A stretch of DNA of 64,000 bases from an uncultured delta proteobacterium. GTDB taxonomy: Bacteria > Myxococcota_A > Polyangia > Fen-1088. The DNA is taken from contig CAWCMR010000025.1 of the NCBI GenBank assembly GCA_963796685.1, positions 2,059,623-2,123,622 on the forward strand, in the 5' to 3' direction. Each line of letters begins with the position of its first letter. The first letter of the stretch is position 1. A model generated the notes under the pieces. It worked only from the letters and a program-made list of their open reading frames with translations, was not told where the DNA came from and searched no databases. Of the stretch, positions 14,118-29,287 are shown piece by piece. Made by a program: the position numbers and the translations under genes.

Positions 14118-14540
14118 AGGTAGATTGTAGCATGCGTAGAGAGGACTTCGGCGGCACCTGCCCTTCTCTCCCAGCGCAGACGCTGCGAAGCGGGGAGGGC
14201 GTTGGGCAAGGAGCGGTCCCGCCGGGCCCCATTTTCTCGCCGTCCCCGACACCTTCCCCTCCGTCGAACGCTCGGACAAGAACGTTTCTTTTCAACTTAG
14301 TGTGTTTCCCACTACATTTGCGACACGCGCTTCCGGGATCTGCGACGGTGGTGTGCGCGCGGTCATGTTTTGTCTGCTGTCAGCTCCTACCTTTACGTCC
14401 AAAATGTCGGCCACCGGGGCTAAGAAAGCGCAGTTAATGATTATTTTTCTTGCCTCTTTCGGTACTGGCCCCAAAATGTTCCGGCTGCTGCGATGCGCTC
14501 GCATTGCGGAACAACATTGGGTTTCGACGGAGGCTATTAC

Positions 14541-17500
14541 ATGACGTGTTCTAAGAACTTCGGACGGTTGCTCCAGGCCAGTTGCCTGGGGCTCATTGGC
14601 ATGCTGACGGTCGTCGGCTGCGGCGGGAGTGAAAACCCCGCTCACAACGACGCTGCTCCAAGTGATGGCGGGGGCTCGAAAGTGCCCAACCTCACCGCTA
14701 GTACGGGGACCGTAAGCGTCGGTACCGTCGACGTCGGCAAGATCTCGACGGCGGCTACGGTGGTCATCACCAACAACGGAACCGGTGCGGGCGTGGTGAC
14801 CGTGACACCATCCGGGGTCACGGCTTCCGGCTGCGCCGGAAACCTGGCAGTCAATGCACCGTGCACGCTCTCGATCACCGCGACCCCGTCGGTTGCAGGT
14901 CCGATCACGGGCAGCGTATCCGTCGTCATCGCCGGGGGCAACACCCTCACCATCGGCGTCACCGGCAACGCCGTGCCTCCGGGTAACTTTACCCTCGACA
15001 AGACCGCCATCGACCTCGGCCCGCTTGCTGTCGGCCAGGTCGCTCAGGCCACGGTCACGGTCACGGCCGGGTCGGCGTTGACCGGGCTCACGACGACCGT
15101 GCAAGGTGCGGACGTCAAGCCAGACGCCGCCTCTACATGCACTGCGACCCTTGGTGCTGGCCTGACCTGCACCGTGGTGGTCGACTTCAGCATGGCCACG
15201 GCCGGCACCCCGATCGGCGACGCGATCCTCGTTTCTCAGGGCGGCGTCACCAAGACCGTCCCCATCACAGCCACTGTCCTGGCGTTGGCCAAGCTCAGCG
15301 CCTCGCCGCTTTCGGGGGCCCTTGTGGCAGCGCCGGGCGCGACAAGCGCTCCGCTCTCCATCAATGTCGGCAACACGGGTGGTATGACGACCGGTCAGAT
15401 CGTCGTGGCGATTTCCGGCGCGAATGCGGCGGATTTCAAGATCGTCTCTGATACCTGCAGCATCGTGAACCTTGCGGGCGGCGCGACCTGCGCCGTGGCA
15501 GTGGTTTACACCCCGGCTGCCACTGCTACCTTGGCCGAAGCGGCTACCCTGACCATCACGGACAAGGGCGCGGCCGGGTCCGTGGCCACGGTCGCCCTCA
15601 GCGGCACGCCCCAGCTCCCCAGCAACCTCAAGATCACCGGCGGGCCGGACCTTGGCCAGGTGGCCCCAGGCGGCTCGGGCTCCGAGGTGGTCTTCACGGT
15701 GACCAATACCTCCACGACGGCTTCGGGCGCAGTCACCGCGACTGTCGGAAGCTCGAGCGTCACCATCTCCAGCAACACCTGCGCGACCAAGGCCACGCTG
15801 ATCCAGAACGATACCTGCACCATCGGCCTGAAGCTGACGCCTCCGAGCACCGCCCTTGCATCTAGCATTTCGACCCTTTTGACCGTCTCATCGGCCAGCG
15901 GCGACACCACGAACGTGATGGTGACCGGCACCATCCTGAGCGGCGTGGTTCTCTCGGCGACGCCCGCCTCGGTAAGCTTCGGCTCGGTTCCAGCCAATCA
16001 ACAGTCGGCTGTCAAGACCGTCACCATCACCAATGGCGGCGCTACCGCGACGAGCATCTTGAGCGCCACGCTCTCGGGAACGGGTGCGGCCCAGGTCGTT
16101 ATCACCGGGAACACCTGCACCGGCGTTCTGGCTCCGGCCGCGACCTGCACCGTCTCGGTCCAGTACAGCCCCACGGATACGACCGGCGTCAGTGGCCAGA
16201 TCACCGTCACCGACGGCGCGGCGACTGTCTCCGTCCCCATGGTGGGCACGGGTTTGGCGCCGAGCGTGTTCACGCTGGTTACTGACACCTCCGCCTTCTC
16301 AGCCTTCGGTCCGACTGTGGTCGGATACACCTCCTCGCCTCAAAGCGTGCATCTCCAGTTAGTGTCCAGCGCTACGACCGATTCCGGGGCGATCACTCTT
16401 ACCATCGGCGGCGCCAATGCAGCCGACTATGCTACGGTGCCTGCGAACACCAACTGCACCCTGCTCCAGGCCGGGCAAAACTGCGACATCACCGTGGCCT
16501 TCACGCCCGGTGCTGTCGGAGCTAGCGCGGCGACCCTCACCGTGACGGGTGCCAAGGGTGGCACGTACACGTTCGACCTCAAGGGCACCGGCCTGGCCCT
16601 GGTTCAGCTCGTCCCGCTGGGTCAGACGGCCACCACGATCGCCACGCCCTACACAGGTCTCGATTTCGGCCAGCAGCCCAATGCCACGCTAGGCAACGTC
16701 TTCGCGTATCGTGTCGTGGTCCGCGGCGCAACCAATCCTGCCGCGACCTCTACGGTGCCCAGCATCGCCATGGCACCTGGCACGCCGCCGGACTTCACCT
16801 ACGTGACAGGTACAACAGTTGGGGACGCCACTACGTGGGCGCCCGCCCCGACCAATCCGTGCAATCCCGGTCCAACCCTGACCCTCCCGGCAGACGCATC
16901 TTCATCTCCGTGGATTGTCGGTGCCAAGACGTCTACGAATCCCTCGATCGCGCCTAATGCCCCGGTTTCCACGCTGAATACCGATGAGCAGTCCACTGTT
17001 TTGTACTGGACCTGCGACTTCTACGTCCAGTTCAGCCCGACCAGTGGCAAGAGTGCGACGCCGAAGACGGCGACGCTCACCGCCACCGCCTCGGCTGGCG
17101 GGACGGCGACCCTGACCCTGACCGGCACCGCGAGCGGCCCGCTCACTATCACGCCCTCGGTGACCTTCGACCCGACTCCGCTCGGCACGAGCAGCGCCGA
17201 TGTCCAGGCAGGTAACAGGACCTTGACCGTCGTCAACAAGGCGGTTAACAGCATCAGCCAAGGGCCGCTATCGGTGGCACTGGGAGGTGCCAACGCGGCC
17301 GATTTCGCGATCGTTTCAGACGGTTGTTCCGGCCAGCCGCCGCTCGTCCCCAGTGGAGGCCACTGCGATATCGTCGTTGCCTTCACCCCGAGTGTGGCTG
17401 CTGTCGAGACAGCGACACTCACCGTGACGGCTTCGAATACGGGAGAAACTGCGCAGGCTACCCTCAAGGGTACCGGCAGCGCGTCTTCCGCCATCACCGT

Positions 17501-20183
17501 GACCCCGACCGCGGTGGCGCCTGCCGCCGTGGACTTCGGCTCGGTGGCTCAGAACAACGTCGGTGTGTGGACCAGCTTCACCGTTACCAATCCAGCGACG
17601 GGTACGGAAACCGGCCCCCTCGCCTACTCGCTTGGTAGCGAAGATCCATTCGAGCTGTACACGCCCGCGGCTGCGGGTGTCACCGCGTACCCGGCTGGCT
17701 TCTGTGGCGATCCCTCCGGCGGTGCTCAATCCACCTCGTTGGTCCCTGGCGCAACCTGCATCATTCAGGTCCGCTTTATTCCGACGCTAGTTGGTGCGGC
17801 GAGTGGCTCACTGACCGTGGGTAGCCTTGCCGCTATTCCGCTCAAGGGCATGGGGACGGCCCAGCTGGTCCTCTCCGGAAGCGCCATCACGACGGTCAAC
17901 AGCGTCCAGACCCTGGCCTTCGGCAATGTTGGCGTGGGTGCGACAGGCACGCAAACCTTCACCGTCACCAACAATGGTGCAGCCACCTCGGCAGGCAGCG
18001 TCGCGTTGACGCTATCCAACAATGCTGCCGACCCGGCGGTCTTTGCCGCAGGTCTCCCGCCCCACTTCAGTCCAGGAACCACCGGTTGTGGGTCGACTCT
18101 GGCCGGCGGTCAGAGCTGCCAGATGACCCTCATCTACACGGGCGTTGCCCTGGAGACTGTGTCCCAACAGATCGTCATCTCGAATTCAACTCCGCTCGGC
18201 ACTACGAATCCCGTCAACGCGTCGCTGGTTCTCACGGCTAAGACCGTGAATCCGGCACTGCTTGCGCTGTCCGGCTTCGACTATTACACGCCGCCTACGC
18301 CAGCTGATGGATCGGGCCAGGCGATCGACCTAGGGGCAACGCCGATTGGTACGTCCACCGGTGTGCTTACGCTGGTATTCGTCAACAACGGAGCCGTCGC
18401 TGCTACAGGGCTCCAGGCCTCATGGCCGTTCACCAATCCTCCCGGGAACACCGACTTCTCGATTGCGGCAGAAAACCAGGGGACCTGCTTCGGGATCGGT
18501 GGAACGCTCGCACCGCAGCAGACCTGCACCGTCAACGTTCGTTGCACGCCGTCGGCTCTAGGTGACCGCGTTGCCGAGCTTCAACTGAACGGCCTGGCTG
18601 CGCCCGGCCCCGTCGTCAAGCTTCACGCGACTGGGATTGCGCCCACGAACGTGTACGCCTTCGCGCAAGGCGGAAGCAACTCGTTCTACAACTTCGTCGG
18701 AGCCACAACCGCTCTGCCCGGTGCGGGGGCCAAGGCCTACTTCACGTTGGTCAATGGCACGACGAGCCCGATTCCCCTCGGAACCAGCACCACTGACTTC
18801 ACGGGTGGCTCGGGCACCACCCTCAGTGTCATCGGGGTCGCGCTTCCAACCACCGAGCCTTCTACGGACTTCGCCCTGTCGAAGCCGACAGGCGTGGCAG
18901 GCATCGCAAATCCGTGCGGGACGACGCTCAGTTCAGGCGGTCAATGCACCTTCGCGGTGACCTTCACGCCCACGTGGAACGATACCGACCATCTCTACCG
19001 ATGGGCCAACGTGACCACGTCCGTAGGGAGCGCCACTGATATCGTTGGGGTCTTTGGTCGGGTGCAGATGCCCGCCATGCTGCAGCTCAGCGCCGCGCCT
19101 TCGGTGGGGCAGGTAACTGTCACTGCGGCGACCACTAGCGTGGCCGGCTCCGTCGACTTCGGTCAAATCCTGACCGGGCAACTCTCGTCCGAGGTCTTCA
19201 CCATCACCAACATCGGTGACGTGGCCACGGCCGGAAATGTGGGGTTGAAGATGATCGGCACGGGGTCGTATGCGGTCCTTGGCACCTCGACGTGCGGAAG
19301 CTCTCCGCTCGCTCCGGGCGCAGCCGCAGCCTGCACCGTGACCGTTAACTCCCAGCTCACGTCCAGCACCGGAACTCGGACGGGTCTGTCGGTCCAAGCG
19401 GTCGACCTCGGTGTCCCAACGGCCACCGGCGAGGAGAGCCTGCAGACCTTCGACCTACAGGCCGAGGTCGTGAACCAGGCAAACCTCACGCTCAATCCCA
19501 CTGGTACGACGTTTGCGACCAGCACCCCGGCGGGCTCGACGGATGCTGAGAGGGTCACGATTACTGTGGCGAATGGAGATCCGGCGAACGATGATGCGTC
19601 GAATCGACAGAACACCACGGCGCTCATCGTCACCCTGTCGGACTCGACGAACTTCGCGGTGGACAGCGCCAGCACCTGTCTGAATCCCTCGACGCAGACG
19701 TACAAGGCACTACCGCTCACCGCGAGCGGAGTCGATAGCGAGTCCTGCACGATCATTGTCAAGTTCACTCCGCAGGCCGCTGGAGCTAAGAGCACGACCG
19801 TGTCGGTAAGCGCGACGACGGGAGGCACGCCAACCCCAGTCTCCCTGACGGGAACGGGATTGAGCACGCTGACCTCGGATGCGAGTGCCAACCCGGCCGC
19901 GCCCACGACCTTCACCATCACCCACGGTGGTAGCGGGACGACGGGTCTTCTCACAGAGTCGCTGACGGGAACCAACGCCTCCGCCTTCGTCATCAGCGAC
20001 GATCAATGCTACGGCACTTCGCTCACAGGCAATGGAGACACTTGCCAGGTTACGGTGACCTTCGTCGGCACCTGCAGCGCGACCACTGCCCAGACCGCCA
20101 CCCTCAAGGTGACGGATGGAACGGCGAACAGCACCGTGAGCATTCCGATGTCGGTTGGCGGCGCGACCGCTGGCTGCCCGTAG
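14541..20183 (+). CDS. Very large surface lipoprotein with tandem Cys-paired Ig-like (ASH / choice-of-anchor D-like) repeats
   Basis: GGAGG RBS at 14529; lipobox TVVG-C; repeated 'DFG...FTVTN.G...TC...L.PG.TC.I.V.F.P...A.LTV' units; Thr/Ala/Gly/Val-rich. Confidence 0.85.
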   Translation: MTCSKNFGRLLQASCLGLIGMLTVVGCGGSENPAHNDAAPSDGGGSKVPNLTASTGTVSVGTVDVGKISTAATVVITNNGTGAGVVTVTPSGVTASGCAGNLAVNAPCTLSITATPSVAGPITGSVSVVIAGGNTLTIGVTGNAVPPGNFTLDKTAIDLGPLAVGQVAQATVTVTAGSALTGLTTTVQGADVKPDAASTCTATLGAGLTCTVVVDFSMATAGTPIGDAILVSQGGVTKTVPITATVLALAKLSASPLSGALVAAPGATSAPLSINVGNTGGMTTGQIVVAISGANAADFKIVSDTCSIVNLAGGATCAVAVVYTPAATATLAEAATLTITDKGAAGSVATVALSGTPQLPSNLKITGGPDLGQVAPGGSGSEVVFTVTNTSTTASGAVTATVGSSSVTISSNTCATKATLIQNDTCTIGLKLTPPSTALASSISTLLTVSSASGDTTNVMVTGTILSGVVLSATPASVSFGSVPANQQSAVKTVTITNGGATATSILSATLSGTGAAQVVITGNTCTGVLAPAATCTVSVQYSPTDTTGVSGQITVTDGAATVSVPMVGTGLAPSVFTLVTDTSAFSAFGPTVVGYTSSPQSVHLQLVSSATTDSGAITLTIGGANAADYATVPANTNCTLLQAGQNCDITVAFTPGAVGASAATLTVTGAKGGTYTFDLKGTGLALVQLVPLGQTATTIATPYTGLDFGQQPNATLGNVFAYRVVVRGATNPAATSTVPSIAMAPGTPPDFTYVTGTTVGDATTWAPAPTNPCNPGPTLTLPADASSSPWIVGAKTSTNPSIAPNAPVSTLNTDEQSTVLYWTCDFYVQFSPTSGKSATPKTATLTATASAGGTATLTLTGTASGPLTITPSVTFDPTPLGTSSADVQAGNRTLTVVNKAVNSISQGPLSVALGGANAADFAIVSDGCSGQPPLVPSGGHCDIVVAFTPSVAAVETATLTVTASNTGETAQATLKGTGSASSAITVTPTAVAPAAVDFGSVAQNNVGVWTSFTVTNPATGTETGPLAYSLGSEDPFELYTPAAAGVTAYPAGFCGDPSGGAQSTSLVPGATCIIQVRFIPTLVGAASGSLTVGSLAAIPLKGMGTAQLVLSGSAITTVNSVQTLAFGNVGVGATGTQTFTVTNNGAATSAGSVALTLSNNAADPAVFAAGLPPHFSPGTTGCGSTLAGGQSCQMTLIYTGVALETVSQQIVISNSTPLGTTNPVNASLVLTAKTVNPALLALSGFDYYTPPTPADGSGQAIDLGATPIGTSTGVLTLVFVNNGAVAATGLQASWPFTNPPGNTDFSIAAENQGTCFGIGGTLAPQQTCTVNVRCTPSALGDRVAELQLNGLAAPGPVVKLHATGIAPTNVYAFAQGGSNSFYNFVGATTALPGAGAKAYFTLVNGTTSPIPLGTSTTDFTGGSGTTLSVIGVALPTTEPSTDFALSKPTGVAGIANPCGTTLSSGGQCTFAVTFTPTWNDTDHLYRWANVTTSVGSATDIVGVFGRVQMPAMLQLSAAPSVGQVTVTAATTSVAGSVDFGQILTGQLSSEVFTITNIGDVATAGNVGLKMIGTGSYAVLGTSTCGSSPLAPGAAAACTVTVNSQLTSSTGTRTGLSVQAVDLGVPTATGEESLQTFDLQAEVVNQANLTLNPTGTTFATSTPAGSTDAERVTITVANGDPANDDASNRQNTTALIVTLSDSTNFAVDSASTCLNPSTQTYKALPLTASGVDSESCTIIVKFTPQAAGAKSTTVSVSATTGGTPTPVSLTGTGLSTLTSDASANPAAPTTFTITHGGSGTTGLLTESLTGTNASAFVISDDQCYGTSLTGNGDTCQVTVTFVGTCSATTAQTATLKVTDGTANSTVSIPMSVGGATAGCP

Positions 20184-20214
20184 TCGCTAGTCGCTAGACC
20201 TAGCATCCAAAGTG

Positions 20215-20249
20215 AAACCCCGGGGCCTCGGCTCCGGGGTTTTTCTTTT
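20215..20249 (+). terminator. Rho-independent terminator
   Basis: AAACCCCGGGGC-CTCG-GCTCCGGGGTTT stem followed by TTCTTTT. Confidence 0.85.
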
Positions 20250-20336
20250 GGTGCGCCTAGGATGACCGTCGTCTTGGGGGTGGAAATTCCCCCGGAAGGA
20301 GACCATCCCAAACGAAGCCGCCGCGCCGCGCGCAGT

Positions 20337-20399
20337 GGAGGTGCCAGAGACTATTGGTCGCTGGGGAGGTGCGCAGTGGAGGTGCCAGAGACCTATTGG
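20337..20399 (+). repeat. Two copies of the GGAGGTGCCAGAGAC(C)TATTGG motif
   Basis: Copies at 20337-20357 and 20378-20399, each preceded by GCGCAGT; same motif at 24333-24410 and 25652-25673. Confidence 0.8.
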
Positions 20400-20487
20400 C
20401 GCGAGGCGTCTACATCTATGGACGGCCTAGACTAGTGCTGAGCGACAATTACATCTCCCCACGTGTGAATGTAGTTGACGTCCAGCA

Positions 20488-20623
20488 CGCGGCCAAGGTC
20501 TGCAGTCCCACCAGGTGCGCGGTGCAATCGAAGGCGGGAAGCACGAGCCCATCGCGAACCATCGCCAGTACCACCAGGGCGTTGCGTAAGTGGAAGGCCG
20601 CTTCGGCAAGGATAGAATTACAT
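20488..20623 (-). pseudogene. Middle fragment of a PIN-domain toxin gene
   Basis: CNSILAEAAFHLRNALVVLAMVRDGLVLPAFDCTAHLVGLQTLAA; joins in frame to the fragment at 24158-24332. Confidence 0.7.
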
Positions 20624-20687
20624 CCAAAAACCCCATCCGAGGGTACTTCTTCGTCCCTAAACCTCGACCGGAAATGCCACGGAAATA

Positions 20688-20759
20688 CCCAGGGTACTAC
20701 CCTTCTCTCGCAACTTTCTGCTTCCGTTTCCGAGAAGCTATGGATGACACTCGCTCGTC
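20688..20759 (+). repeat. ~70-bp direct repeat (upstream region plus first codons of a RAYT-like transposase); partner at 25690-25757
   Basis: CGCAACTTTCTGC..CCGTTTCCGA.AAGCTATG.ATGACACTC.CTCGTC; the core has only 4 mismatches in ~51 nt between copies. Confidence 0.8.
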
Positions 20760-21095
20760 GGCTCGGTACACGCCGGCGCTGGGGCGTGCAGCTATTCGGC
20801 AGCGACGGCGAAGCAACCTGATCTGCTTCCACTCGTTCGAGCGCCTTCTCGCCTGCCGCGCGGTGGGCGGGCTGGTGAATGTAACGCGAGGATGCTCGAG
20901 GACTTTCGGATGCCGGGCACATCTGGCTGTCGAGCAAACCTAGGAAGGAACCCCCGCGCGGATCGCTGCTTGCAGACGAGCGCTCGTCGGGGTCTTCGAG
21001 GGAGGAGGTGTAGGCGTGGTCGACGCCGTACGTGGCAATTCGACTTTCCGCTGCATGCTAGCAACGACATCATATTTACGGTAAATATGGTGGCT

Positions 21096-22253
21096 ATGTA
21101 TACACGGACGCTAGGGCTCCCAGAAAGCTCGTTCTTCCTCTTCGGTCCGCGCGGGACCGGGAAGACGACCTGGTTGCGGCAGCAACTCGGGGCCGCTCGC
21201 CGGTACGACCTCTTGCTTGAACGGGAGCATCTGCGACTGTTGCGTGACCAGGAGGTGTTTCACCAGGAGGTCGAGGCGCTAAAGTCAGGGTCTTGGGTAG
21301 TCGTCGACGAGGTCCAGCGTATGCCGGCCCTACTCGACGAGGTCCAGGACATCATCAGTCGGCATGGCAAGCATATACGCTTCGCACTGACTGGTTCAAG
21401 TGCGCGGAAGCTGAAGCGGGGACAGGCAAATCTACTGGCGGCCCGAGTGATCAATCGGCGCTTCTTCCCCTTGACTGCGTCGGAAATGGGCGACGAGTTT
21501 AGCATCGACGAGGTTCTTCAATTCGGAACCCTGCCCGCGGTAGCAGCCGAAACGGAGGCAAGGGCGAAGGTCGACCTGCTCGACGCGTACGTGGAAAACT
21601 ATATCGGGCAGGAGATCCGCGCCGAGGCCGCGGCCAAGCGACTCGATTCCTTCACGCGCTTCATGGTCATCGCCGCATTGGCGAATGCTCAGGTCACCAA
21701 CGTGGCAGCGATTGCGCGCGATGCGGCAGTGGCAAGACCCACGGTCAACGGTTACTTCGACATTCTGGTGGATACGCTGATCGGCACTTGGCTGCCGGCT
21801 TGGCGTCCACGCGCCAAGGTCAAGGAGGTGGCTCACCCGAAGTTCTTCTTCTTCGACAGCGGCGTTGCGCGCGCCATGGCGAGCCGACTGCGCGAGCCCT
21901 TGGAAAGCGCCGAGAAGGGCCACCTCTTCGAAACCTACATCTTGCATGAGCTTCGTGCCCGGATGAACCAAGCCGGTACCGGCGGCGAATTCGGCTACTG
22001 GCGCACGCCTTCAGGAACGGAGATCGATTTTGTCTGGACCCGTGGTGGTCGCTCGGTCGGTATCGAGGTCAAGAGCAGCAACCGGTGGAAGTCGGAGTAC
22101 TCGCGTGCGCTTGCCGAGCTTTTCGGCGAAGGCGCTCTGAGCTCGGCATTCGGCGTCTATCTGGGCGAGCACGAGATCAAGGATCGCGGTATCCGCGTGC
22201 TGCCACTCGCAGCATTTCTGCAAGCGCTAGCGGCGGGCGAGGTGATCGGCTGA
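21096..22253 (+). CDS. AAA_14 ATPase with C-terminal DUF4143 / PD-(D/E)xK-like domain
   Basis: GPRGTGKT Walker A, VDEVQR Walker B, TGSSARKL, KFFFFDSG, EIDFV..GIEVK. Confidence 0.9.
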   Translation: MYTRTLGLPESSFFLFGPRGTGKTTWLRQQLGAARRYDLLLEREHLRLLRDQEVFHQEVEALKSGSWVVVDEVQRMPALLDEVQDIISRHGKHIRFALTGSSARKLKRGQANLLAARVINRRFFPLTASEMGDEFSIDEVLQFGTLPAVAAETEARAKVDLLDAYVENYIGQEIRAEAAAKRLDSFTRFMVIAALANAQVTNVAAIARDAAVARPTVNGYFDILVDTLIGTWLPAWRPRAKVKEVAHPKFFFFDSGVARAMASRLREPLESAEKGHLFETYILHELRARMNQAGTGGEFGYWRTPSGTEIDFVWTRGGRSVGIEVKSSNRWKSEYSRALAELFGEGALSSAFGVYLGEHEIKDRGIRVLPLAAFLQALAAGEVIG

Positions 22254-22543
22254 CCGGGAGGTAGACTTCCAAGCCCGCAAGCGGGCATTGGCCGGCTCTT
22301 GAATCAACGTGCCGTGGCGCGCTCAGAAAACGAGCCCTTCAGGTGTCACCAGGACCCAGGCCCGTGCAACCCACCCACCCACGACTACCCAGTGTGGGGA
22401 TTTGCGATCACGCTAATAGCCGCGGTTCCAGAGGAGTCCTCGCGTGGGCAAGGATAGAATTATGGCGCTCCTGGCCCCGAGCTGCCTACTGGATTGCTCG
22501 TACCTATATTGCATTAACTTAGCACTAGAGATATCTTACTGCC

Positions 22544-23179
22544 GTGAGATTTGATGCGCTTCTGGCGCTGGTTGCTGACGAACCTGTGTTCGCTTCCGCC
22601 CTTCTGCTGGCCGGGGACGTGTCAGCTGCGCAGGTGCGTCTGCAGCTGTCGCGCTGGGTGAAAGCTGGCCGGTTGCTTCGACTCCGCCGCGGGCTCTATG
22701 CATTGGCGCCGACGTGGCGGAAGGTGGAGCCGCACCCGTTCCTTGTGGCGAACCGGCTCCAGCGAGGATCCTACGTGAGCCTGCAGTCGGCCCTCGCTTT
22801 TTACGGGGTCATTCCCGAGCATGTGCCGGTGGTGACCAGCGTCGGGCAGGGGCGCCCAGAAACGCTACACAATCCTCTGGGTGGATTTCAGTTCAACCAC
22901 CTCACCGGGACGCTCTTCCTCGGCTATTCAAGGATGGAGGTTGCCGCCCGACAGTTCGCCTTCGTGGCCTCGCCGGAGAAGGCCCTGCTTGATCTCGTTT
23001 ACCTCACCCCAGGCGCAGATTCCCAGGACTACCTCCGAGAGCTTCGCCTGCAGAGCTCGGAGGCGATGGACGTGTCGACGCTGGACGAGCTTGCGCGGCG
23101 AAGCGGCAAAGCCAAACTGGTCAGGGCAGCCCGACTCGTCGAGAGCCTATTCTCGGTGGCGGAGGGAGACTCACTATGA
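22544..23179 (+). CDS. Type IV TA antitoxin, AbiEi-like
   Basis: LSRWVKAGRLLRLRRGLY, SYVSLQSALAFYG.IPE, ASPEKALLD motifs. Confidence 0.85.
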   Translation: MRFDALLALVADEPVFASALLLAGDVSAAQVRLQLSRWVKAGRLLRLRRGLYALAPTWRKVEPHPFLVANRLQRGSYVSLQSALAFYGVIPEHVPVVTSVGQGRPETLHNPLGGFQFNHLTGTLFLGYSRMEVAARQFAFVASPEKALLDLVYLTPGADSQDYLRELRLQSSEAMDVSTLDELARRSGKAKLVRAARLVESLFSVAEGDSL

Positions 23180-23982
23180 AGGAGTATCTGCGGCAACTGA
23201 CCGCACAGGCGGACAACGACCTTGCCCGCGGGTGTTTGGCTCGTGAGTATCTTCAAGCGCGCGTCCTCGAGTCGTTGCAAGACGAAGGCGTGTTTTTGCG
23301 CTGGGCCTTCGTGGGCGGCACCGCGTTGCGATTCCTGTTCGCCATTCCGAGGTTCTCGGAGGATCTGGACTTTTCCGTACCCTCGCCGGGGGCCGACCCT
23401 GGCTTCAGGCCGATCTTGACCGTGCTCAAGCGGGTCTTCGAACGCGAAGGCTACCGGATCGAGGTCAAGGTCAGCGAACACAGGACGGTGGCCACGGCGT
23501 GGGTGAAGTTTCCCGGACTGCCGCATGAGCTTGGTCTGTCGCCACGTGCGACCCAGACCCTTTCCATCAAGGTCGAATTGGACAAGAACCCACCAGCGGG
23601 AGCGGGTATCGAAACCTCGGTCGTTCGCCGGCACGTGACCCTGCACCTCTGCCATCATGACAAGCCTTCGCTCCTGGCGGGAAAGCTCCACGCCATCCTG
23701 AACCGCCCCTGGACCAAGGGCCGCGATCTCTACGACCTCGTTTGGTATTTGGCGGATCGCACCTGGCCAGCGCCCAACCTGGACATGCTCAACTCCGCAT
23801 TGGCGCAGACCGCCTGGAAAGGCGCCGTCATGACGGCAACCAACTGGCGGGAAGAAATCCGCAAGCGGACGAACATGCTCGACTGGGAACACGCTCGCGC
23901 CGACGTGAGGCCATTCCTGGAGCGGGAACGCGACCTCGATCTGGTGACCAGGGAAGTCCTGAGCAAACTGTTGGGCAGCTAA
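23176..23982 (+). CDS. Type IV TA toxin, AbiEii nucleotidyltransferase
   Basis: FVGGTALR, RFSEDLDF, AGKLHA, KGRDLYDL motifs; ATGA overlap with the antitoxin. Confidence 0.88.
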   Translation: MKEYLRQLTAQADNDLARGCLAREYLQARVLESLQDEGVFLRWAFVGGTALRFLFAIPRFSEDLDFSVPSPGADPGFRPILTVLKRVFEREGYRIEVKVSEHRTVATAWVKFPGLPHELGLSPRATQTLSIKVELDKNPPAGAGIETSVVRRHVTLHLCHHDKPSLLAGKLHAILNRPWTKGRDLYDLVWYLADRTWPAPNLDMLNSALAQTAWKGAVMTATNWREEIRKRTNMLDWEHARADVRPFLERERDLDLVTREVLSKLLGS

Positions 23983-24157
23983 GGTCACAGCCGGTGGCGC
24001 GCCGGGCGCCCAGGCAGTTGTGCACGCGGGACGCACGGGACACCCACCACGGGACGGCCCTTCCTGGAAGTTTTCCTGCCCCCACAAGACGACGTTGCAA
24101 TCGCGCTCATAGAGTCTGCGCGCGCCTGGGCGCCACAGGTTCTCCCTGCCTTGCTTT

Positions 24158-24332
24158 TCAGCCAGTCGGTGGGCAGATGAGCGGAATCGCCTCACGCTTG
24201 TTCCGCCGGTAGATGCGGAAGTCCTTCCGATCGACGGTGATCACCGGCAGCTTGGGATGGAGCTCGCTCATGCGGATTAGACAAAGATCCGCAAAGTCGG
24301 GGTTGCGATCGGCGTAGCGCGCGGCCAAGGTC
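24158..24332 (-). pseudogene. C-terminal fragment of a PIN-domain toxin gene
   Basis: Manual translation: TLAARYADRNPDFADLCLIRMSELHPKLPVITVDRKDFRIYRRNKREAIPLICPPTG-stop; no start codon before an in-frame stop. Confidence 0.8.
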
Positions 24333-24453
24333 AGACCTATTGGCTAGCCCGCGGGGGAGGTGCCAGAGACCTGGGAGAGCGAGCCCTGAGGTGGTGCCAG
24401 AGACCGATTGCCCGAGGAGTAGGCGAAGGCCTGCCGGACATCTCTGGACACCT
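24333..24453 (+). repeat. Cluster of GGTGCCAGAGACC motifs (one half copy, two full copies, one degenerate inverted copy)
   Basis: AGACCTATTGG 24333-24343; GGAGGTGCCAGAGACCT 24356-24372; GGTGCCAGAGACCGATTG 24393-24410; TCTCTGGACACCT 24441-24453. Confidence 0.75.
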
Positions 24454-24514
24454 ACTGTCCCGACGATTCAGAATGGCCCACCCCGCGCCTTTCGAACCCA
24501 CCTCCATGGTCCGT

Positions 24515-24970
24515 CTACTGGAGGAGACGCCGATCAAAGACGAAGTCGGTGGGTGGTCGAAGGTGAATCTCAGAAAAGTCGGGGTGTTTAGGATTGATCA
24601 GAAAATTCACCTCATCAGGAACGATTGCACTCGGCACCGCAAGGATAACTGAATCGCCTGCGTTGACCCAGTCATCGCCAAGGCGCTGCAGAGACAGCGG
24701 CGGTGGTTCGTGTTGCCAGTCCTTCGGGAGCTGCTGGGCAGGAAAGGTTCTCATCAACGCTTCATCGAAGTCGAAGGCGAACAACTTGTAGGGAGCCGTC
24801 GGCGCGATGTGAACGCGAACCTCGAGCACAGCAAGAGATTGGTGTTCGCTGGAATAGATTATCGGTACTCCGACGGAGTTCCATCGCCCGCCGTACCGCC
24901 TCGCCCCTTCACCGTCGAAAGCCGTCTTCTCTTGAGGTGCGGGCACCAGGCGCCAACCGGTACGTATCAA
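24515..24970 (-). CDS. RES-domain toxin (NAD+ phosphorylase family)
   Basis: AFDGEGARRYGGRWNS.G, LAVLE, VPSAIVP.E.N.LINP.HPDF. Confidence 0.92.
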   Translation of the reverse strand: MIRTGWRLVPAPQEKTAFDGEGARRYGGRWNSVGVPIIYSSEHQSLAVLEVRVHIAPTAPYKLFAFDFDEALMRTFPAQQLPKDWQHEPPPLSLQRLGDDWVNAGDSVILAVPSAIVPDEVNFLINPKHPDFSEIHLRPPTDFVFDRRLLQ

Positions 24971-25578
24971 GTATAGACTCCGTACTCGATTCTGCCCAAA
25001 AGGTTCTCAACCTCGCGCGCACCAACTTCGCTTTTTGCATAGTCGAGGGGCACGGCACCCGCGAGACCGAGTTGGGGAGAGTTGAGCCATTTGTTTGCGT
25101 CGTCCTTGCTTCCGAGGACCTTGATCGCCTTGCTGAGCAGCAAGGCGAAGCGAACAACACGATCTGAAACCAAGGGGGTAAGATTGGACCCCGTGGTCTT
25201 GCGACGGTGGAACGTCGTCTTGGACAGGCCGACGAGGGGGAGAAGCCTTTCCGATGAGACGTCGAGACTGTCCTGGAGAACGGTCAATTCGGACTCTGGT
25301 AGGCCAGCTTCGGTGGCTTCGACTTGTAGAGAGATGGGGACGTCATGGGTTGGACCGCGTCCCATCGCAGTGTCTAGATAGAATTGGACTACGCCTTGGC
25401 GAAGCTTGACGTGGACTGAGACCTTGCGACGGCTGGGCGTCGCTGCTTTCTTGGCAAGCCGGTGGGCTTCCCTGGTGGACGCACCGAGAAAGCCACACCG
25501 GGTGTCCGTCGGAGTTTTCTTGGGAGACGCCCGAAGTGGAGCTTTCTTGGCACGCGCCGCTGTCGAGGTGGTTTTCAT
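24967..25578 (-). CDS. Xre/MbcA/ParS antitoxin (DUF2384)
   Basis: HTH region, then WL.SPQLGLAGAVPLDYA.SEVGAREVENLLGRIEYGV; overlaps the RES gene. Confidence 0.9.
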   Translation of the reverse strand: MKTTSTAARAKKAPLRASPKKTPTDTRCGFLGASTREAHRLAKKAATPSRRKVSVHVKLRQGVVQFYLDTAMGRGPTHDVPISLQVEATEAGLPESELTVLQDSLDVSSERLLPLVGLSKTTFHRRKTTGSNLTPLVSDRVVRFALLLSKAIKVLGSKDDANKWLNSPQLGLAGAVPLDYAKSEVGAREVENLLGRIEYGVYT

Positions 25579-25651
25579 TTGACACTAATGATAGTTGCAT
25601 TTGGTACGTCTGGCAAGCGTCGGATATTCGAGATTGTGGTTCAACTCCGGA

Positions 25652-25673
25652 GGAGGTGCCAGAGACCTATTGG
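25652..25673 (+). repeat. GGAGGTGCCAGAGACCTATTGG motif
   Basis: Identical to 20378-20399. Confidence 0.8.
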
Positions 25674-25741
25674 TTAGCTGACGACAAAGCCCAGGGTACT
25701 TTTCCGCGCAACTTTCTGCTGCCGTTTCCGAAAAGCTATGC

Positions 25742-25865
25742 ATGACACTCCCTCGTCAGGTCGCGTCCGGTCGTGTCTACATGGTCATCCGCCGCTGCTC
25801 CGAGCCGCGCTCTTTCTTGCGCCCCGATGACTACAACAAAAGCCCCTACGGCTGCCCGGATCCCT
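25742..25865 (+). pseudogene. 5' remnant of a RAYT/IS200-like (Y1 HUH) transposase
   Basis: MTLPRQVASGRVYMVIRRCSEPRSFLRPDD resembles, from memory, N-termini of the 'PR..PG..Y.ITRRC..R.FLLRPD' Y1 transposases; it ends before any HUH motif. Confidence 0.6.
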
Positions 25866-27497
25866 CTACCGCGGAATGCTCTTTCCCGCGGAGGCTTCGA
25901 TCTTCCTGAAGTCCTCGATGTGGGCCAGGAAGACGCGCACGATGTCGGGGTCGAATTGGGTGCCGCTACAGCGTTCCATCTCGCCGCAGGCGATGACGTG
26001 GGGCAGGGCTTTGCGGTAGGCGCGGTCGGTGGTCATGGCGTCGTAGGCGTCGGCCACGGCGACGATGCGACCGATGGTGGGGATGCGCTCGGCTTGCAGG
26101 CCTTGCGGGTACCCCGAGCCGTCCCAGGCCTCGTGGTGGCAGTAGCAGCCTGGCACGATGTCGCGCATGAACGGGATGGGCTCTAGGATGCGGCGGCCCT
26201 TGGCCGGGTGCGAGCGGAACATGGCCAGCTCTTCGGGGGTCAGCTTGCCGGGCTTGTTGAGGCGGTCGTTGCGAATGCCGATCTTGCCCACGTCGTGCAG
26301 CAGACCGGACTTGACCACGGTTTCGATCTCCTCGCTCGGCAATCGCATGCCCACGGCGATGAGGCGCGCGTAGGTGGCCACGCGCTCGGAATGGCCGCGG
26401 GTGTAGCGGTCGGATTCTTCCAAGGCGTGGGCGAAGCCGATGATGGTCTGCTTGAAGTTCTCTTCCAGCGAAATGTTGGCGTGGACCAGGTCTTCGTTGG
26501 CGTCGACCAGGCTTTCGTACAGGCGCGCGTTCTCGATGGAGACCGCGGCGCGGCTGCCGAGCACGTACAGCATCTTGCGCTGGCCCTCGCTGAATTTGGC
26601 ACCCTTGGTGTAGCTGTAGGCGTTCAGCATGCCGATGGTGCGGCCCTTGAGCTTGAGCGGAATGGAACAGAAGCTCACCAGGCGCTTTTCGGGCGGGCCT
26701 GACAGAAAACGAAAGGCGCGCGACCCGTGCACCAGCAGGGGCTTGTCTTCTTGCAGAAGCGGCAGCACCTCGTTGAAGTTGAGCGGCGGCGCGGGCTCGC
26801 TGGCCTCGAGGCGAGGCGAGACCTTGCGCGCGTGCTCGATGAAGGCGCCGGGCAGGTCGCTGGCGTGGCGTGCGTCGCCCGGACGTTCCAGCATCAGGTT
26901 GACGATGTCGGCGTCCACCGCGTCCAGCACGGCGTCGAGCACGAGGTCGAGCACCTTCTCGACGGACAGCGAGGTCGCGATGGCCTCGCTGATCTTGTAG
27001 ATGGAAAGCGCGTCCTTGAGGCGGAGGTTCTCGTGTTGCAGGCGCTGGCGGTCGAGCCCGCGCTTGACGATGTGGATGACCTCCTCGACTTTGAAGGGCT
27101 TGAGGATGTAGTCGTACGCCCCGTGCTTCATGGCCTCGATGGCGGTCTCCACCGTGCCGAAGCCGGTCATGATCACCGTCAGCACCGGAATCCCGAGCTC
27201 GGTGATCTTCTCGATGAGATCGAGCCCGTTCATCTTGGGCATCTTGAGGTCGGAGATGACCAGGTTGTAGCTGCGCTTTTGCAGCTCCTCCAAGGCCTGC
27301 ACGCCGTCCTCGACGGTGCGCACCACGTAGCCTTCCAGGCCGAGAAAGTCCGACAGGATCTCGCGGATCACGCGCTCGTCGTCGACCACCAGGATGCGCG
27401 GGCTATCCGGGTTGAAGGTGTACTCGAGTCGCTGGCTTACGGCGCCAAGCTCGTCGGAGCTCTCCTCGGGTGTGCTGCCTAGAGGGGTCGTGGTCAT
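25866..27497 (-). CDS. Response regulator with REC, GAF and HD-GYP phosphodiesterase domains
   Basis: ILVVDDE, DLKMP, KPF; GAF region; GHSERV, LHDVGKIG, HHEAWDGSGYP, VADAYDAM. Confidence 0.93.
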   Translation of the reverse strand: MTTTPLGSTPEESSDELGAVSQRLEYTFNPDSPRILVVDDERVIREILSDFLGLEGYVVRTVEDGVQALEELQKRSYNLVISDLKMPKMNGLDLIEKITELGIPVLTVIMTGFGTVETAIEAMKHGAYDYILKPFKVEEVIHIVKRGLDRQRLQHENLRLKDALSIYKISEAIATSLSVEKVLDLVLDAVLDAVDADIVNLMLERPGDARHASDLPGAFIEHARKVSPRLEASEPAPPLNFNEVLPLLQEDKPLLVHGSRAFRFLSGPPEKRLVSFCSIPLKLKGRTIGMLNAYSYTKGAKFSEGQRKMLYVLGSRAAVSIENARLYESLVDANEDLVHANISLEENFKQTIIGFAHALEESDRYTRGHSERVATYARLIAVGMRLPSEEIETVVKSGLLHDVGKIGIRNDRLNKPGKLTPEELAMFRSHPAKGRRILEPIPFMRDIVPGCYCHHEAWDGSGYPQGLQAERIPTIGRIVAVADAYDAMTTDRAYRKALPHVIACGEMERCSGTQFDPDIVRVFLAHIEDFRKIEASAGKSIPR

Positions 27498-27522
27498 TCG
27501 ATCAAGCTCGATAGACCTGAGT

Positions 27523-29193
27523 CTACCTCAAAGACACGCGGGCGAAGAACTCGTCCAGCTTTTCCCTGCGAGCCGGGTCGAGGTAATCGAAATTGACGCC
27601 ACGGTCCGTAACCTCCCAGAATTGCCTGTCGTTCACGGCAACCAGCTCGGCCCGAATCGAGGCCATACGCTCCGGTTTCTCGCCGCGCATGTCGGCGCAA
27701 ATGCGGTCGGCCTGGGGCAGGGCGCCCTTGGACAGGTAGAAGGTCGCCAACCTGATCTGGGCCTTGCGCACGCCGCGCAGGGTTGATTCCTGGGCATGGG
27801 TCTCCGCTTCCTTGTCGACCTCCAGGAAGATGTTCAGCAACGTGTCATGGCAAGCGATATCCTGGGTGTACGTGCGCTCGCACAGCACCGCCAGGTCGTG
27901 GGCCGCGGTTTCGGTGACGAAGCCCAGATCCGCCTTCTGCGCGGTTTGGCCGTAGTAGGCGAGGCAGCGGCCGATCTCCATCACCAGATCGCCGAAGCCC
28001 TGGGGAGGTTTCGCTTCCTTTCCGCCTTCGCCCACGCGATGTCCCTTGCGCAGGATGTGCTCGGCCAGCATTCGGTACTGGTGCAGGATGTTGTAGCAGG
28101 CGCGCACGTCGCGCTGGTTGAGGGCGCTGCGCAGGTAGGTGTTGAAGTAGCGGATGGCCAGCACCATGACTTCGCGGTCGCCGTGGCGCAGGGCCTCTTC
28201 GGCAATGTAGCGGGTCTCGATGGCCACCACATGGGCGAGCTCGGGCAGGTGGTCGAGGGCTTCGGAAAAAACGCTGCGGAAGTGGTGCAGCACCTTCCAC
28301 TCGACCCAAGTCCTGTTGCCTTCGAGCGCGTGTAGCGAGTCCGGCGTGAGCGCGATGAAATCGGGGTTACCGTGGAGGCGCGACCCGAGGACGAACCACT
28401 CCGCCGGCAAGGCGGCCTTCTCCTCGAGGAACCTGACCGCGAACTCGCGCAGGGCCGTGACCGCGCCGGTGGCGATGATCTTGTCCTTTTGGGCCGCCGT
28501 GTTCACCGCGATGTCCGACAGGTGTTCCAGGCCGGCCACGCAGCTCGCCTGGCGCACGTCCAGGTCGTGACGATCGCGGCGCGCTACCCCGCGCGCCAAC
28601 ACGGCGTCCAGCACCTGCTGCCCAATGCGCGTGATGACCTTCTCGGGATCGAGGAACGCGAACACGTAGGCGAAATAGGGGATGAGCAAGAGCAGGCTGG
28701 CGGTCACCACCACCGTGGTCATGGCCACCGTGGCCCGCGGCACGAAACCGCTGGTGACCACGATGCTGACCCACACCGCGTTGATGCAGGCCACGACGAA
28801 GAAGCCCATGATGGCCAGGTTCTTCTTGTCGCGGAAAAACATCTCGGCGATACGCGGGGTATACCGGGTTGCGGCGAGCTGGACGACAATGGACACCACG
28901 GTGATGGCGATGCCGAGCACGGCCACCACCACCTGGGCCAAGCTGCCGAGGGCGTTCTGCAGCGTCTCGGCGTCGAGATCCACCAGCAATCGCCAGGCCC
29001 CGAGGTGCTCGGCCGCGGGTGTGCGCCGGCCGAAAAACGCCACGTCGAGCAGCCAGAAGACGGCGAAAAGGACGAGCGACAGCGCCAGCAGGATGCCGAT
29101 GCCCGAGGGAAAGCGCGGACGCCACCTTGGCGGGGTGGCCGAAATCGCCGGCGCGCCGCCGACCGTGCTGCTGCGTGGCTGATCGCGTTTCAC
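27523..29193 (-). CDS. DUF2254-like membrane protein
   Basis: VVQLAATRYTPR motif within four hydrophobic segments, followed by a long helical domain; start uncertain. Confidence 0.75.
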   Translation of the reverse strand: MKRDQPRSSTVGGAPAISATPPRWRPRFPSGIGILLALSLVLFAVFWLLDVAFFGRRTPAAEHLGAWRLLVDLDAETLQNALGSLAQVVVAVLGIAITVVSIVVQLAATRYTPRIAEMFFRDKKNLAIMGFFVVACINAVWVSIVVTSGFVPRATVAMTTVVVTASLLLLIPYFAYVFAFLDPEKVITRIGQQVLDAVLARGVARRDRHDLDVRQASCVAGLEHLSDIAVNTAAQKDKIIATGAVTALREFAVRFLEEKAALPAEWFVLGSRLHGNPDFIALTPDSLHALEGNRTWVEWKVLHHFRSVFSEALDHLPELAHVVAIETRYIAEEALRHGDREVMVLAIRYFNTYLRSALNQRDVRACYNILHQYRMLAEHILRKGHRVGEGGKEAKPPQGFGDLVMEIGRCLAYYGQTAQKADLGFVTETAAHDLAVLCERTYTQDIACHDTLLNIFLEVDKEAETHAQESTLRGVRKAQIRLATFYLSKGALPQADRICADMRGEKPERMASIRAELVAVNDRQFWEVTDRGVNFDYLDPARREKLDEFFARVSLR

Positions 29194-29287
29194 ACCCACC
29201 TCACCCCTAACGCATACCACGAGGCGTGGATGCGGAAAATGCGGCATTGAGATTCACGATCCCGCGACAACCGCAGAAGGCCATGTC

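Follow-up and report, generated by a model that had tools for sequence, protein, structure and literature searches.

What has shaped an island of toxin-antitoxin (TA) and defence genes in which one short motif recurs, always in the same orientation, at the boundaries between modules? The question is raised by positions 20337-25865 of the window, the 64,000-nt stretch of contig CAWCMR010000025.1 (assembly GCA_963796685.1, an uncultured delta proteobacterium) that was analyzed here. The genome of the window, G000, is assembled in 26 contigs of 7,309,768 bases, with 64.6% G+C and 88.6% completeness. The first-pass annotation had compared the motif to repetitive extragenic palindromes (REPs), had seen a remnant of a Y1/HUH enzyme of the REP-associated tyrosine transposase (RAYT) type beside it, and had proposed that the motifs are recombination sites for the integron-like gain and loss of TA and defence genes. 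Part of this interpretation holds: the motif resembles REPs and has a link to Y1/HUH genes, TA and defence genes do turn over, and at least one break lies in a motif, while the copies found here look like relics. We consider it probable that the island combines decayed REP-like repeats and Y1/HUH debris in a variable slot, with the repeats serving as breakpoints.

The motif is confined to the island. Its 12-mer core, GGTGCCAGAGAC, occurs in five exact copies (20340, 20381, 24359, 24393 and 25655), all on the plus strand, for which dinucleotide shuffles give a mean of 0.49 and 0 of 100 shuffles reach five; these are also its only occurrences in the 7.3 Mb of the genome. The 22-mer GGAGGTGCCAGAGACCTATTGG, with an expectation of 0 in dinucleotide shuffles, is exact at 20378 and 25652 and carries 3 mismatches at 24390. 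All copies fall in window positions 20337-25673, and a Hamming scan of G000 found no further copy at up to 4 mismatches, the counts at 5-6 mismatches being those of reversed and complemented controls. The positions given in the first pass hold, except that the copy placed at 24393 is the core of the 22-mer that starts at 24390. The copies, together with one left partial unit and one half-site, are the following.

20337..20357, plus strand: motif copy A (GGAGGTGCCAGAGAC-TATTGG, one base missing)
20364..20371, plus strand: left partial unit GGAGGTGC, which stops within the core as the left half-units of the wider family do
20378..20399, plus strand: motif copy B, exact 22-mer
24333..24343, plus strand: motif half-site AGACCTATTGG (right half), joined directly to a broken PIN gene
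24356..24377, plus strand: motif copy D, tail diverged (CCTGGGAG)
24390..24411, plus strand: motif copy E, 3 mismatches
25652..25673, plus strand: motif copy F, exact 22-mer

As had been proposed, these clusters mark module boundaries: the left edge of the island, the interval between its AbiE/PIN-remnant part and the RES-Xre pair, and the right edge. The gaps between the ATPase gene and AbiE and between AbiE and the PIN remnant hold no motif. As a genome-wide REP of G000 the motif was rejected, the count across the genome having yielded five copies in a single island and none of the dispersal typical of REPs.

Does the motif nevertheless belong to a REP-like family? Sequence comparison indicates that it is a local, degenerate member of a Myxococcota repeat family with the core GGTGCCAGACACC. 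Copies of the 22-mer at up to 3 mismatches number 0 to 3 in congeners, and 9 of 61 relatives' genomes (G000 included) have any. A scan for two cores lying 10-40 nt apart gave at least 119 loci, and among the matches listed 27 of 80 came from Myxococcota-type records (Myxococcaceae, Myxococcales, Myxococcota, Sandaracinaceae and delta-proteobacteria). The Myxococcota loci share a common grammar, in which the core GGTGCCAGACACC is followed by a lineage-specific tail (mostly TCGTTACC) and by stuttering partial duplications; a genome of the same family as the window's, G041, carries arrays of GGTGCCAGACACCCATTGG (locus L011, the same array as L098). The exact 13-mer occurs 39, 27, 80, 55 and 29 times in five genomes (G061-G065), with 0-1 in the reversed control, so that the canonical core does show REP-like dispersal at high copy number (27-80 copies). 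The canonical form makes a hairpin whose stem has 6-7 bp and whose loop has 5 nt; the copy L107, with its usual flanks, has a 7-bp stem and folds at -10.4 kcal/mol (z = -3.9). The same 12-mer pairs also form multi-copy arrays in Treponema metagenome-assembled genomes from termite gut and in Pontibacillus, and occur in actinobacterial and other records; we take all of these for unrelated repeats whose resemblance in this one word is accidental.

The arrays carry a hint of how they arise. Across 32 Myxococcota loci, 33 of 49 right partial units begin at one position of the core (GACACC...), the last bases are GGTGC or GGTGCC in 21 of 29 left partial units, and both preferred ends fall in the hairpin loop. 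The window obeys this half-unit grammar: its left partial unit GGAGGTGC lies at 20364, and its right half-site at 24333 begins one base from the start preferred in the family. The stutter is also seen in metagenome copies of the variant that the window carries (an exact 19-mer scan gave 3 loci, one of which, L206, is a coding coincidence). As far as sequence can tell, the pattern is compatible with an HUH enzyme that nicks the loop and rejoins the ends. A regulatory role for the motif, as an operator or a sigma-54-type promoter, finds some encouragement in the TGGCAC of its reverse complement (minus strand) and in the position of copy F, 74 bp upstream of the Xre-RES operon. The copies, however, have no conserved -12 element, and the bases that are conserved flank TGGCAC on the wrong side; copies stand downstream of genes as often as upstream, and the family occurs in arrays with half-units. 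We give such a role almost no credence.

Which enzyme might act on such a repeat? The reading MTLPRQVASGRVYMVIRRCSEPRSFLRPDD at the right edge of the island (a 55-codon open reading frame (ORF) at 25742) shares 61% identity across 36 residues with the N-terminus of P0001, an intact 316-aa protein encoded elsewhere in the genome (G000:C5:209770-210717) with an HUH motif and a conserved Tyr, which bears out the earlier assignment of this remnant to a Y1/HUH gene. The repeat of about 70 bp that had been seen at both ends of the island is also real: it spans 78 bp at 84.6% identity (20688-20765 against 25690-25763, blastn), has a 57-nt core of 89% identity, and in both copies runs into ATGACACTC. 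A profile search of G000 placed the Y1 family at only two sites, the window remnant and P0001. P0001 has no Pfam match at E <= 1 and does not reach the PF01797 threshold; its match to NCBIfam REP_Tyr_transpos (NF047646) is end-to-end but weak (E = 1e-7, 32 bits, below the cut-off of 80). Its family nevertheless aligns over the full length, at 25% identity, with PF01797-positive Myxococcota proteins of about 300 aa, with SNHxH, the Tyr (Y120) and the C-terminal region conserved in both. The best solved-structure match of the P0001-family profile is 4er8 (E. coli TnpA-REP, E = 9.4e-5), and IS200-type structures match more distantly (2xo6 among them, E = 0.03). The family has the HUH motif and the predicted catalytic Tyr of the Y1 superfamily.

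The link between repeat and enzyme is clearest in G061-G065, which have 15 PF01797 matches (25.8-41 bits, cut-off 23), 14 of which were examined for their surroundings. At 10 of the 14 loci a copy of GGTGCCAGACACC (up to 2 mismatches) lies within 120 bp upstream of the start, at a distance of 60-120 bp, where we estimate roughly that chance would place one at about 1% of loci. An eleventh has a 3-mismatch variant upstream, 8 of the 14 have a further copy 60-470 bp past the stop, and the remaining three carry a different repeat, GAGTTCTCTGAGAC, on both sides. The repeat upstream of 10 of 14 Y1 genes leads us to conclude that this family relates to Y1 genes as REPs do to RAYTs. The truncated gene of the window shows the same arrangement, with copy F 69 bp upstream of the remnant ATG and on the same strand. 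The window copies themselves are neither dispersed nor significantly folded. The three loci with GAGTTCTCTGAGAC (L183, L188 and L189, in G061, G063 and G064) belong to a third Y1 subfamily, whose members all follow one particular gene, by our reading cysteine-desulfurase-like. Repeat and enzyme seem, from these sequences, to co-vary by Y1 subfamily. Four genomes have a Y1 gene downstream of what we read, with Pfam, as an Lhr-type helicase gene.

Within the genus of the window (g1) the Y1 family occurs in multiple copies; individual genomes have 0 to 9 matches, many of them fragments. Here too the genes are flanked by cognate repeats, as in other Myxococcota: arrays of a variable prefix of about 10 nt plus CCGAGGGTACTT stand upstream, and their inverse downstream. 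Repeats of the CCGAGGGTA type were found upstream at 21 of 25 genus Y1 loci and inverted downstream at 13 of 25; in G000, CCGAGGGTA is concentrated at C5:206994-211199 (87 matches against 49 in the control). Since the genus Y1 genes have CCGAGGGTACTT arrays of their own, their cognate repeat is not the window motif. The intact transposase that the first-pass annotation had suggested looking for exists, as P0001, but is flanked by CCGAGGGTACTT rather than by the motif. At one locus (L054, G010:C20) an IS200-type tnpA (838-1344; Pfam Y1_Tnp, 142 bits) sits between the stop of the long Y1 gene and the downstream inverted array, so that two kinds of Y1 gene share one locus. Two other candidates for a partner of the motif failed: an all-against-all tblastx of 11 motif loci and the island gave only a short similarity between L012 and L023, and the ORF beside the G041 array, considered as a Y1 relative, showed no BLASTP similarity.

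Taken together, a mechanism can be proposed. The canonical repeat flanks Y1/HUH genes of about 300 aa and occurs through intergenic DNA as short arrays. The Y1/HUH enzyme would nick the single-stranded hairpin in its loop and then rejoin it, a reaction that would yield stutter arrays and occasionally join foreign DNA. The repeats would in this way become breakpoints where modules are gained, lost and rearranged. At the window locus the system is probably extinct in G000, because the copies do not fold, the Y1 gene is cut to about 35 codons, and the intact paralogue carries another repeat.

Do the genes of the island bear the marks of such turnover? Their features, from one conserved flank to the other, are as follows.

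14493..20183, plus strand: left flank, conserved; 1896-aa Ig-like repeat surface protein (ORF list)
20203-20254: terminator-like hairpin after the surface-protein gene (inverted repeat I1)
20436..20487, minus strand: remnant of a gene 3' end, paralogue of G000:C5:258269-258321 (96% over 53 bp)
20484..20619, minus strand: PIN (VapC) toxin gene, middle fragment (ILAEAAFHLRN...LQTLAA)
20599..20620, plus strand: direct repeat D7 (GGCAAGGATAGAATTA core), copy 1
20625..20765, plus strand: left remnant of a Y1 gene upstream region, with two CCGAGGGTACTT-type repeats (20637, 20689) and the first codons ATGACACTC (20744)
21087..22253, plus strand: AAA_14/DUF4143 ATPase (Pfam); PADLOC candidate defence family PDC-S01 (8.7e-56)
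22441..22462, plus strand: direct repeat D7, copy 2
22544-23179, plus strand: AbiEi antitoxin (Pfam; PADLOC, AbiE pair 3e-53, 2e-64)
23176-23982, plus strand: AbiEii nucleotidyltransferase toxin (Pfam; PADLOC)
24158..24332, minus strand: PIN gene, C-terminal fragment; its upstream end abuts the motif half-site
24515-24970, minus strand: RES toxin (Pfam RES, 8e-28)
24967-25578, minus strand: Xre/MbcA-type antitoxin (Pfam Xre_MbcA_ParS_C, 1.2e-15; Xre-like-HTH)
25681..25847, plus strand: right remnant of a Y1/HUH gene, with one CCCAGGGTACTT repeat, the conserved leader and about 35 N-terminal codons (ATG 25742)
25866..27497, minus strand: right flank, conserved; response regulator with GAF and HD-GYP domains (Pfam), 85-95% identical in congeners

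By comparison with related genomes, the island is a strain-variable accessory slot between two conserved genes, for a giant surface protein and a response regulator, and its content can be read as TA and abortive-infection modules together with debris of a Y1/HUH (RAYT-like) element. The AbiE genes form the adjacent AbiEi-AbiEii pair of a type IV TA or abortive-infection system, and the RES toxin gene lies downstream of its Xre/MbcA antitoxin gene as in type II RES-Xre systems; in each pair the frames overlap by 4 bp. The right Y1 remnant ends 19 bp before the stop of the neighbouring gene. Homologues of the left-flank protein in G010 and G001 have HYDIN/ASH/Cep192-type Ig domains and adjoin the same locus.

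The cargo comparison that had been proposed does reveal differences among congeners. The interval measures 257 bp in G010 and holds only a 65-bp AbiEi scar; in G001 it contains the ATPase gene only (81% identical); in G002 it contains VapBC, an ATPase fragment, AbiE, a PIN gene, Y1 fragments, degenerate motif copies and a DUF4160/DUF2442 pair. The AbiE genes of the window are 97% identical to those of G002:C17. The AbiEi gene of G002 (L025, G002:C17, 7575-7769) contains an insertion of about 194 bp with inverted ends, CCAGAGTTCGTTCC ... GGAACGAACTTTGG, which resembles a miniature inverted-repeat transposable element (MITE).

The clearest break concerns the PIN gene, whose reference copy (L026:4405-4644) matches Pfam PIN. 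Its two fragments, 20484-20619 and 24158-24332, are contiguous in G002 and are split and permuted in the window, where 24316-24332 repeats 20484-20500 as a 17-bp overlap (94%). The permuted order and the overlap together mean that 20484-24332 reads as one unit in circular permutation, extended by 17 bp. On the right this segment directly adjoins the motif half-site at 24333, and on the left it is joined to the remnant of another gene through a microhomology of 3-4 bp, AGC(A), at 20485-20488. Independently of the motif, copies of D7 bracket the segment with the Y1 stub and the ATPase gene, and the G002 junction has D7 once and lacks the segment. A second PIN copy of G002, with an in-frame stop, lies with its ribbon-helix-helix (RHH) antitoxin gene at a contig end (L026, G002:C22, 3927-6364), between an internal Y1 fragment and a phage-type integrase.

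Public data, four soil-metagenome runs of one study available as contigs only, add glimpses of further forms. One soil contig has the contiguous PIN form at about 95% identity and therefore comes from a relative. The X1 contig joins the tail of motif F to the array upstream of the left Y1 remnant (20248>25652, 25684>20625); its sides measure only 33-34 nt, so it possibly derives from another organism or locus. In contigs of two soil runs, 84 bases within 22392-22477, upstream of AbiEi and including the left part of D7, are replaced by 17 letters, which indicates that related populations carry a second junction variant.

Co-oriented direct repeats at module boundaries also resemble attL/attR scars, and the island could then have been built by tandem site-specific integrations of a tyrosine or serine integrase. 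The window has no tRNA or tmRNA gene, though, and no recombinase domain was found among the island ORFs (Pfam scan) or in the ORF list between the flanking genes 14493-29247, whose flanks (14493-20183 and 25866-29247) comprise the surface protein, the response regulator and a further 574-aa ORF that was left unscanned. Arrays that stutter with half-units are not integrase products, and the empty site of G010 contains no motif copy. We regard integrase attachment sites as highly improbable.

A second locus, beside the intact Y1 gene on contig C5, is more telling. Upstream of P0001, co-oriented arrays bracket a lipoprotein gene, followed by a ParE toxin and its antitoxin, on the opposite strand from Y1. 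The orthologous site in G002 (C37) shares the lipoprotein gene and the first array, and its Y1 gene is 90% identical; HicA replaces the ParE pair there and adjoins an ORF that is HicB-like by eye, without a Pfam match. On the left, homology between C5 and C37 ends right after a CCGAGGGTACT unit; it resumes with the final half-unit ahead of the Y1 leader. In G010 and G001, covered by an anchor search at genus level, the lipoprotein gene is present and the whole block of arrays, TA genes and Y1 is absent. A TA pair has been swapped here within a repeat-bounded slot beside a Y1 gene, and no other result supports the idea of the first-pass annotation as strongly, albeit with a repeat other than the window motif. 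Upstream of the lipoprotein gene there is also a block of about 0.8 kb (G000:C5:206994-207830; L200 1495-2330) that consists almost entirely of CCGAGGGTACTT units with several prefixes, is tandemly duplicated and ends in inverted units.

It could be argued that the repeats are passive bystanders, selfish or slippage-prone intergenic sequences that build up in any dispensable DNA, that the TA modules were brought in and shuffled by illegitimate and homologous recombination of other origin, and that the two occur together because a hotspot tolerates junk of both kinds. The island does contain junctions unrelated to the motif (D7, D14 and the AGC(A) microhomology at 20485-20488); G002 has the MITE-like insertion in AbiEi and the phage-type integrase beside the VapBC copy of C22; and canonical arrays lie mostly beside housekeeping genes. 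Three observations speak against mere coincidence: the PIN break lies within 1 nt of the position at which family half-units start, homology between the C5 and C37 loci breaks at repeats on both sides of the swapped TA pair, and the window-type motif lies near TA genes at 3 of 10 outside loci, a small and related sample. We therefore doubt this explanation, while treating it as a serious one.

How far the motif keeps company with TA genes depends on which form is counted. The window-type motif stands within about 100 bp of a TA gene at 3 of 10 outside loci (L022 HicB, L023 PIN, L207 PIN), the ten being L011-L014, L017, L020, L022, L023, L205 and L207, a small set from related genomes. Canonical arrays have a TA gene alongside at 1 of 24 Myxococcota loci (Fic/Doc, L093). 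The other neighbours of these arrays are housekeeping genes (histidine kinases, LigD, Mfd, PurA, Hsp33, RpoN and others) or have no Pfam match. The motif was also considered as an intrinsic end of TA modules and rejected, given that the RES-Xre and AbiE homologues of G012, G004 and G037 have no motif alongside.

Several of these results weigh against the repeats as enzymatically made breakpoints, and they should be set together. The imperfect palindrome of REPs is missing from the window copies, which fold no better than shuffles (z = -0.5 to +1.1 for four copies on the plus strand, -0.2 for one on the minus strand). Only one junction of the island lies at a half-site, the other PIN junction being an ordinary microhomology join, and the half-unit pattern could also come from hairpin-promoted replication slippage. 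G000 has no Y1 gene of the PF01797 type (at an assembly completeness of 88.6%), the intact Y1 genes of the genus carry CCGAGGGTACTT arrays instead of the window motif, and no Y1 homologue was found within 1.5 kb of motif copies in congeners (tblastn with P0001). Arrays of CCGAGGGTAC follow no clear half-unit grammar (63 full units, 16 scattered partials). No contig of the four soil runs spans the island or covers 24357-25650, and the motif junctions lack read confirmation. To these come the single TA gene beside 24 canonical arrays, the motif-free homologues just named and, against dedicated capture, a cargo that lies on both strands.

Many of the same points bear on active integron-like capture, in which the motifs would be dedicated sites and a Y1/HUH enzyme supplied in trans would insert and excise TA and defence cassettes. 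RES-Xre does lie between motifs E and F beside the Y1 stub, ParE and HicA alternate between arrays beside an intact Y1 gene, and in G061 Doc and a further ORF pair (nucleotidyltransferase-like by eye, without a Pfam match) stand between arrays; cargo varies among congeners, one break falls at a half-site, and the short-sided X1 contig joins the tail of motif F to the left Y1 array. Against this stand the lack of folding in the window copies, the absence of a cognate enzyme and an intact paralogue with a different repeat. Both strands carry cargo, 23 of 24 canonical arrays are without a TA gene and TA homologues elsewhere are without the motif; and the soil contigs, none of which spans the island, include no excised or circular form. 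We judge active capture unlikely. An active, dedicated integron-like system is not demonstrated, because the copies are restricted to one island and form no hairpin, the Y1 genes carry another repeat, TA homologues lack the motif and cargo runs on both strands. The broader claim of recombination sites fares better in part: congener cargo differs, PIN is broken at a half-site and the C5 pair has been swapped, but dedicated capture does not follow.

It is tempting to speculate further, that Myxococcota possess a hairpin-repeat system, driven by Y1/HUH enzymes and integron-like in effect, in which the enzyme would nick the loops of short repeats in co-oriented arrays, both 5' of its own gene and at other sites, and strand transfer at the nicks would let small self-contained modules, above all TA and defence genes, be taken up, swapped and lost from array to array. 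The window would then be a burnt-out example and the C5 locus a still complete one. We offer this reading, both parts of it jointly, as a long shot.

How does the system that we consider probable, of REP-like repeats and Y1/HUH genes acting as a source of breakpoints, compare with known ones? It resembles REP/RAYT systems in having a Y1/HUH protein with HUH and Tyr, a gene flanked by short repeats that are often inverted across it, a canonical repeat that is a small intergenic hairpin in tens of copies, and several Y1 genes at the same chromosomal position across genomes (for example after the Lhr-type helicase gene). It differs in that the Myxococcota proteins measure about 300 aa and have a conserved C-terminal extension (4er8 has 165 aa), and in that P0001 scores 32 bits against the NCBIfam cut-off of 80 and has no Pfam match. 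Whole and half units form co-oriented stutter arrays, in contrast to the REPIN (REP doublet forming hairpins) doublets of published descriptions. The half-unit ends suggest that the DNA is broken within the loop, whereas E. coli TnpA-REP cuts beside the hairpin; and the Y1 genes of the window genus are multi-copy (up to 9 matches), with repeats that stay near the gene.

With IS200/IS605 elements the system shares HUH/Tyr chemistry on single-stranded hairpin ends and strand-biased copies; unlike them it has no defined left and right ends with a fixed target, no tnpB and a protein twice as long, and the genuine IS200 tnpA sits separately inside one array (L054). Integrons and CALINs (clusters of attC sites lacking integron integrases) likewise have short sites, foldable as single strands, that separate small modules including TA pairs, with cargo that differs between relatives. 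Here, however, there is no IntI with attI beside an array, and neither attC-like features nor co-oriented promoterless cassettes were seen; the cargo has both orientations and modules have their own promoter regions, and the sites are 13-22 nt cores in arrays. IS91/ISCR elements move by rolling-circle transposition with Y2 HUH enzymes, have ori and ter ends, and can capture neighbouring genes from one end. The precise end (the half-site) joined to an arbitrary point of PIN, and the permuted segment with its 17-bp terminal overlap, may resemble their products; no Y2 enzyme and no ori or ter end is present here.

Two smaller features of the left edge deserve mention. A non-coding element of about 70 nt (GGTGCGCC..GGATGACCGTCGTCTTGGGGGTGGAAATTCCCCCGGAAGGAGACCATCCCAAACGAAGCC) with an obvious nested hairpin lies at window positions 20250-20318 and recurs at G000:C10:10405-10472 (87%) and in G001 and G007. 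It matches no Rfam family and may represent a small RNA or the end of a further mobile element. An Rfam scan at E <= 1 gave only a weak, sub-threshold His-leader match (20128-20249), with the presence of an attC model in the release left unchecked. The paralogue of the gene remnant at 20436-20487 (L201, G000:C5:257500-259500) adjoins a gene with an Imm72 immunity-protein domain, and the remnant may originate in a polymorphic-toxin or immunity locus.

REP and RAYT have been studied mainly in Proteobacteria. Our full-text search of a literature library found no paper on either in Myxococcus or Myxococcota, and the main text of PMC5581495 contains no word beginning with Myxococc, nor Deltaproteobacteria, nor Sorangium. 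The present analysis adds a Myxococcota repeat family with a likely Y1/HUH partner, a sequence-level hint of the cut position in half-units that end in the hairpin loop, and two loci at which TA cargo between repeat arrays differs among close relatives. If the enzyme does not join DNA, the island is still explained as the scar of a decayed mobile element in an ordinary variable hotspot. If it does join foreign DNA there, these bacteria would have a second, integrase-free route by which defence and TA islands are assembled and reshuffled, and both its substrate, a 13-nt hairpin, and its product would be directly testable.

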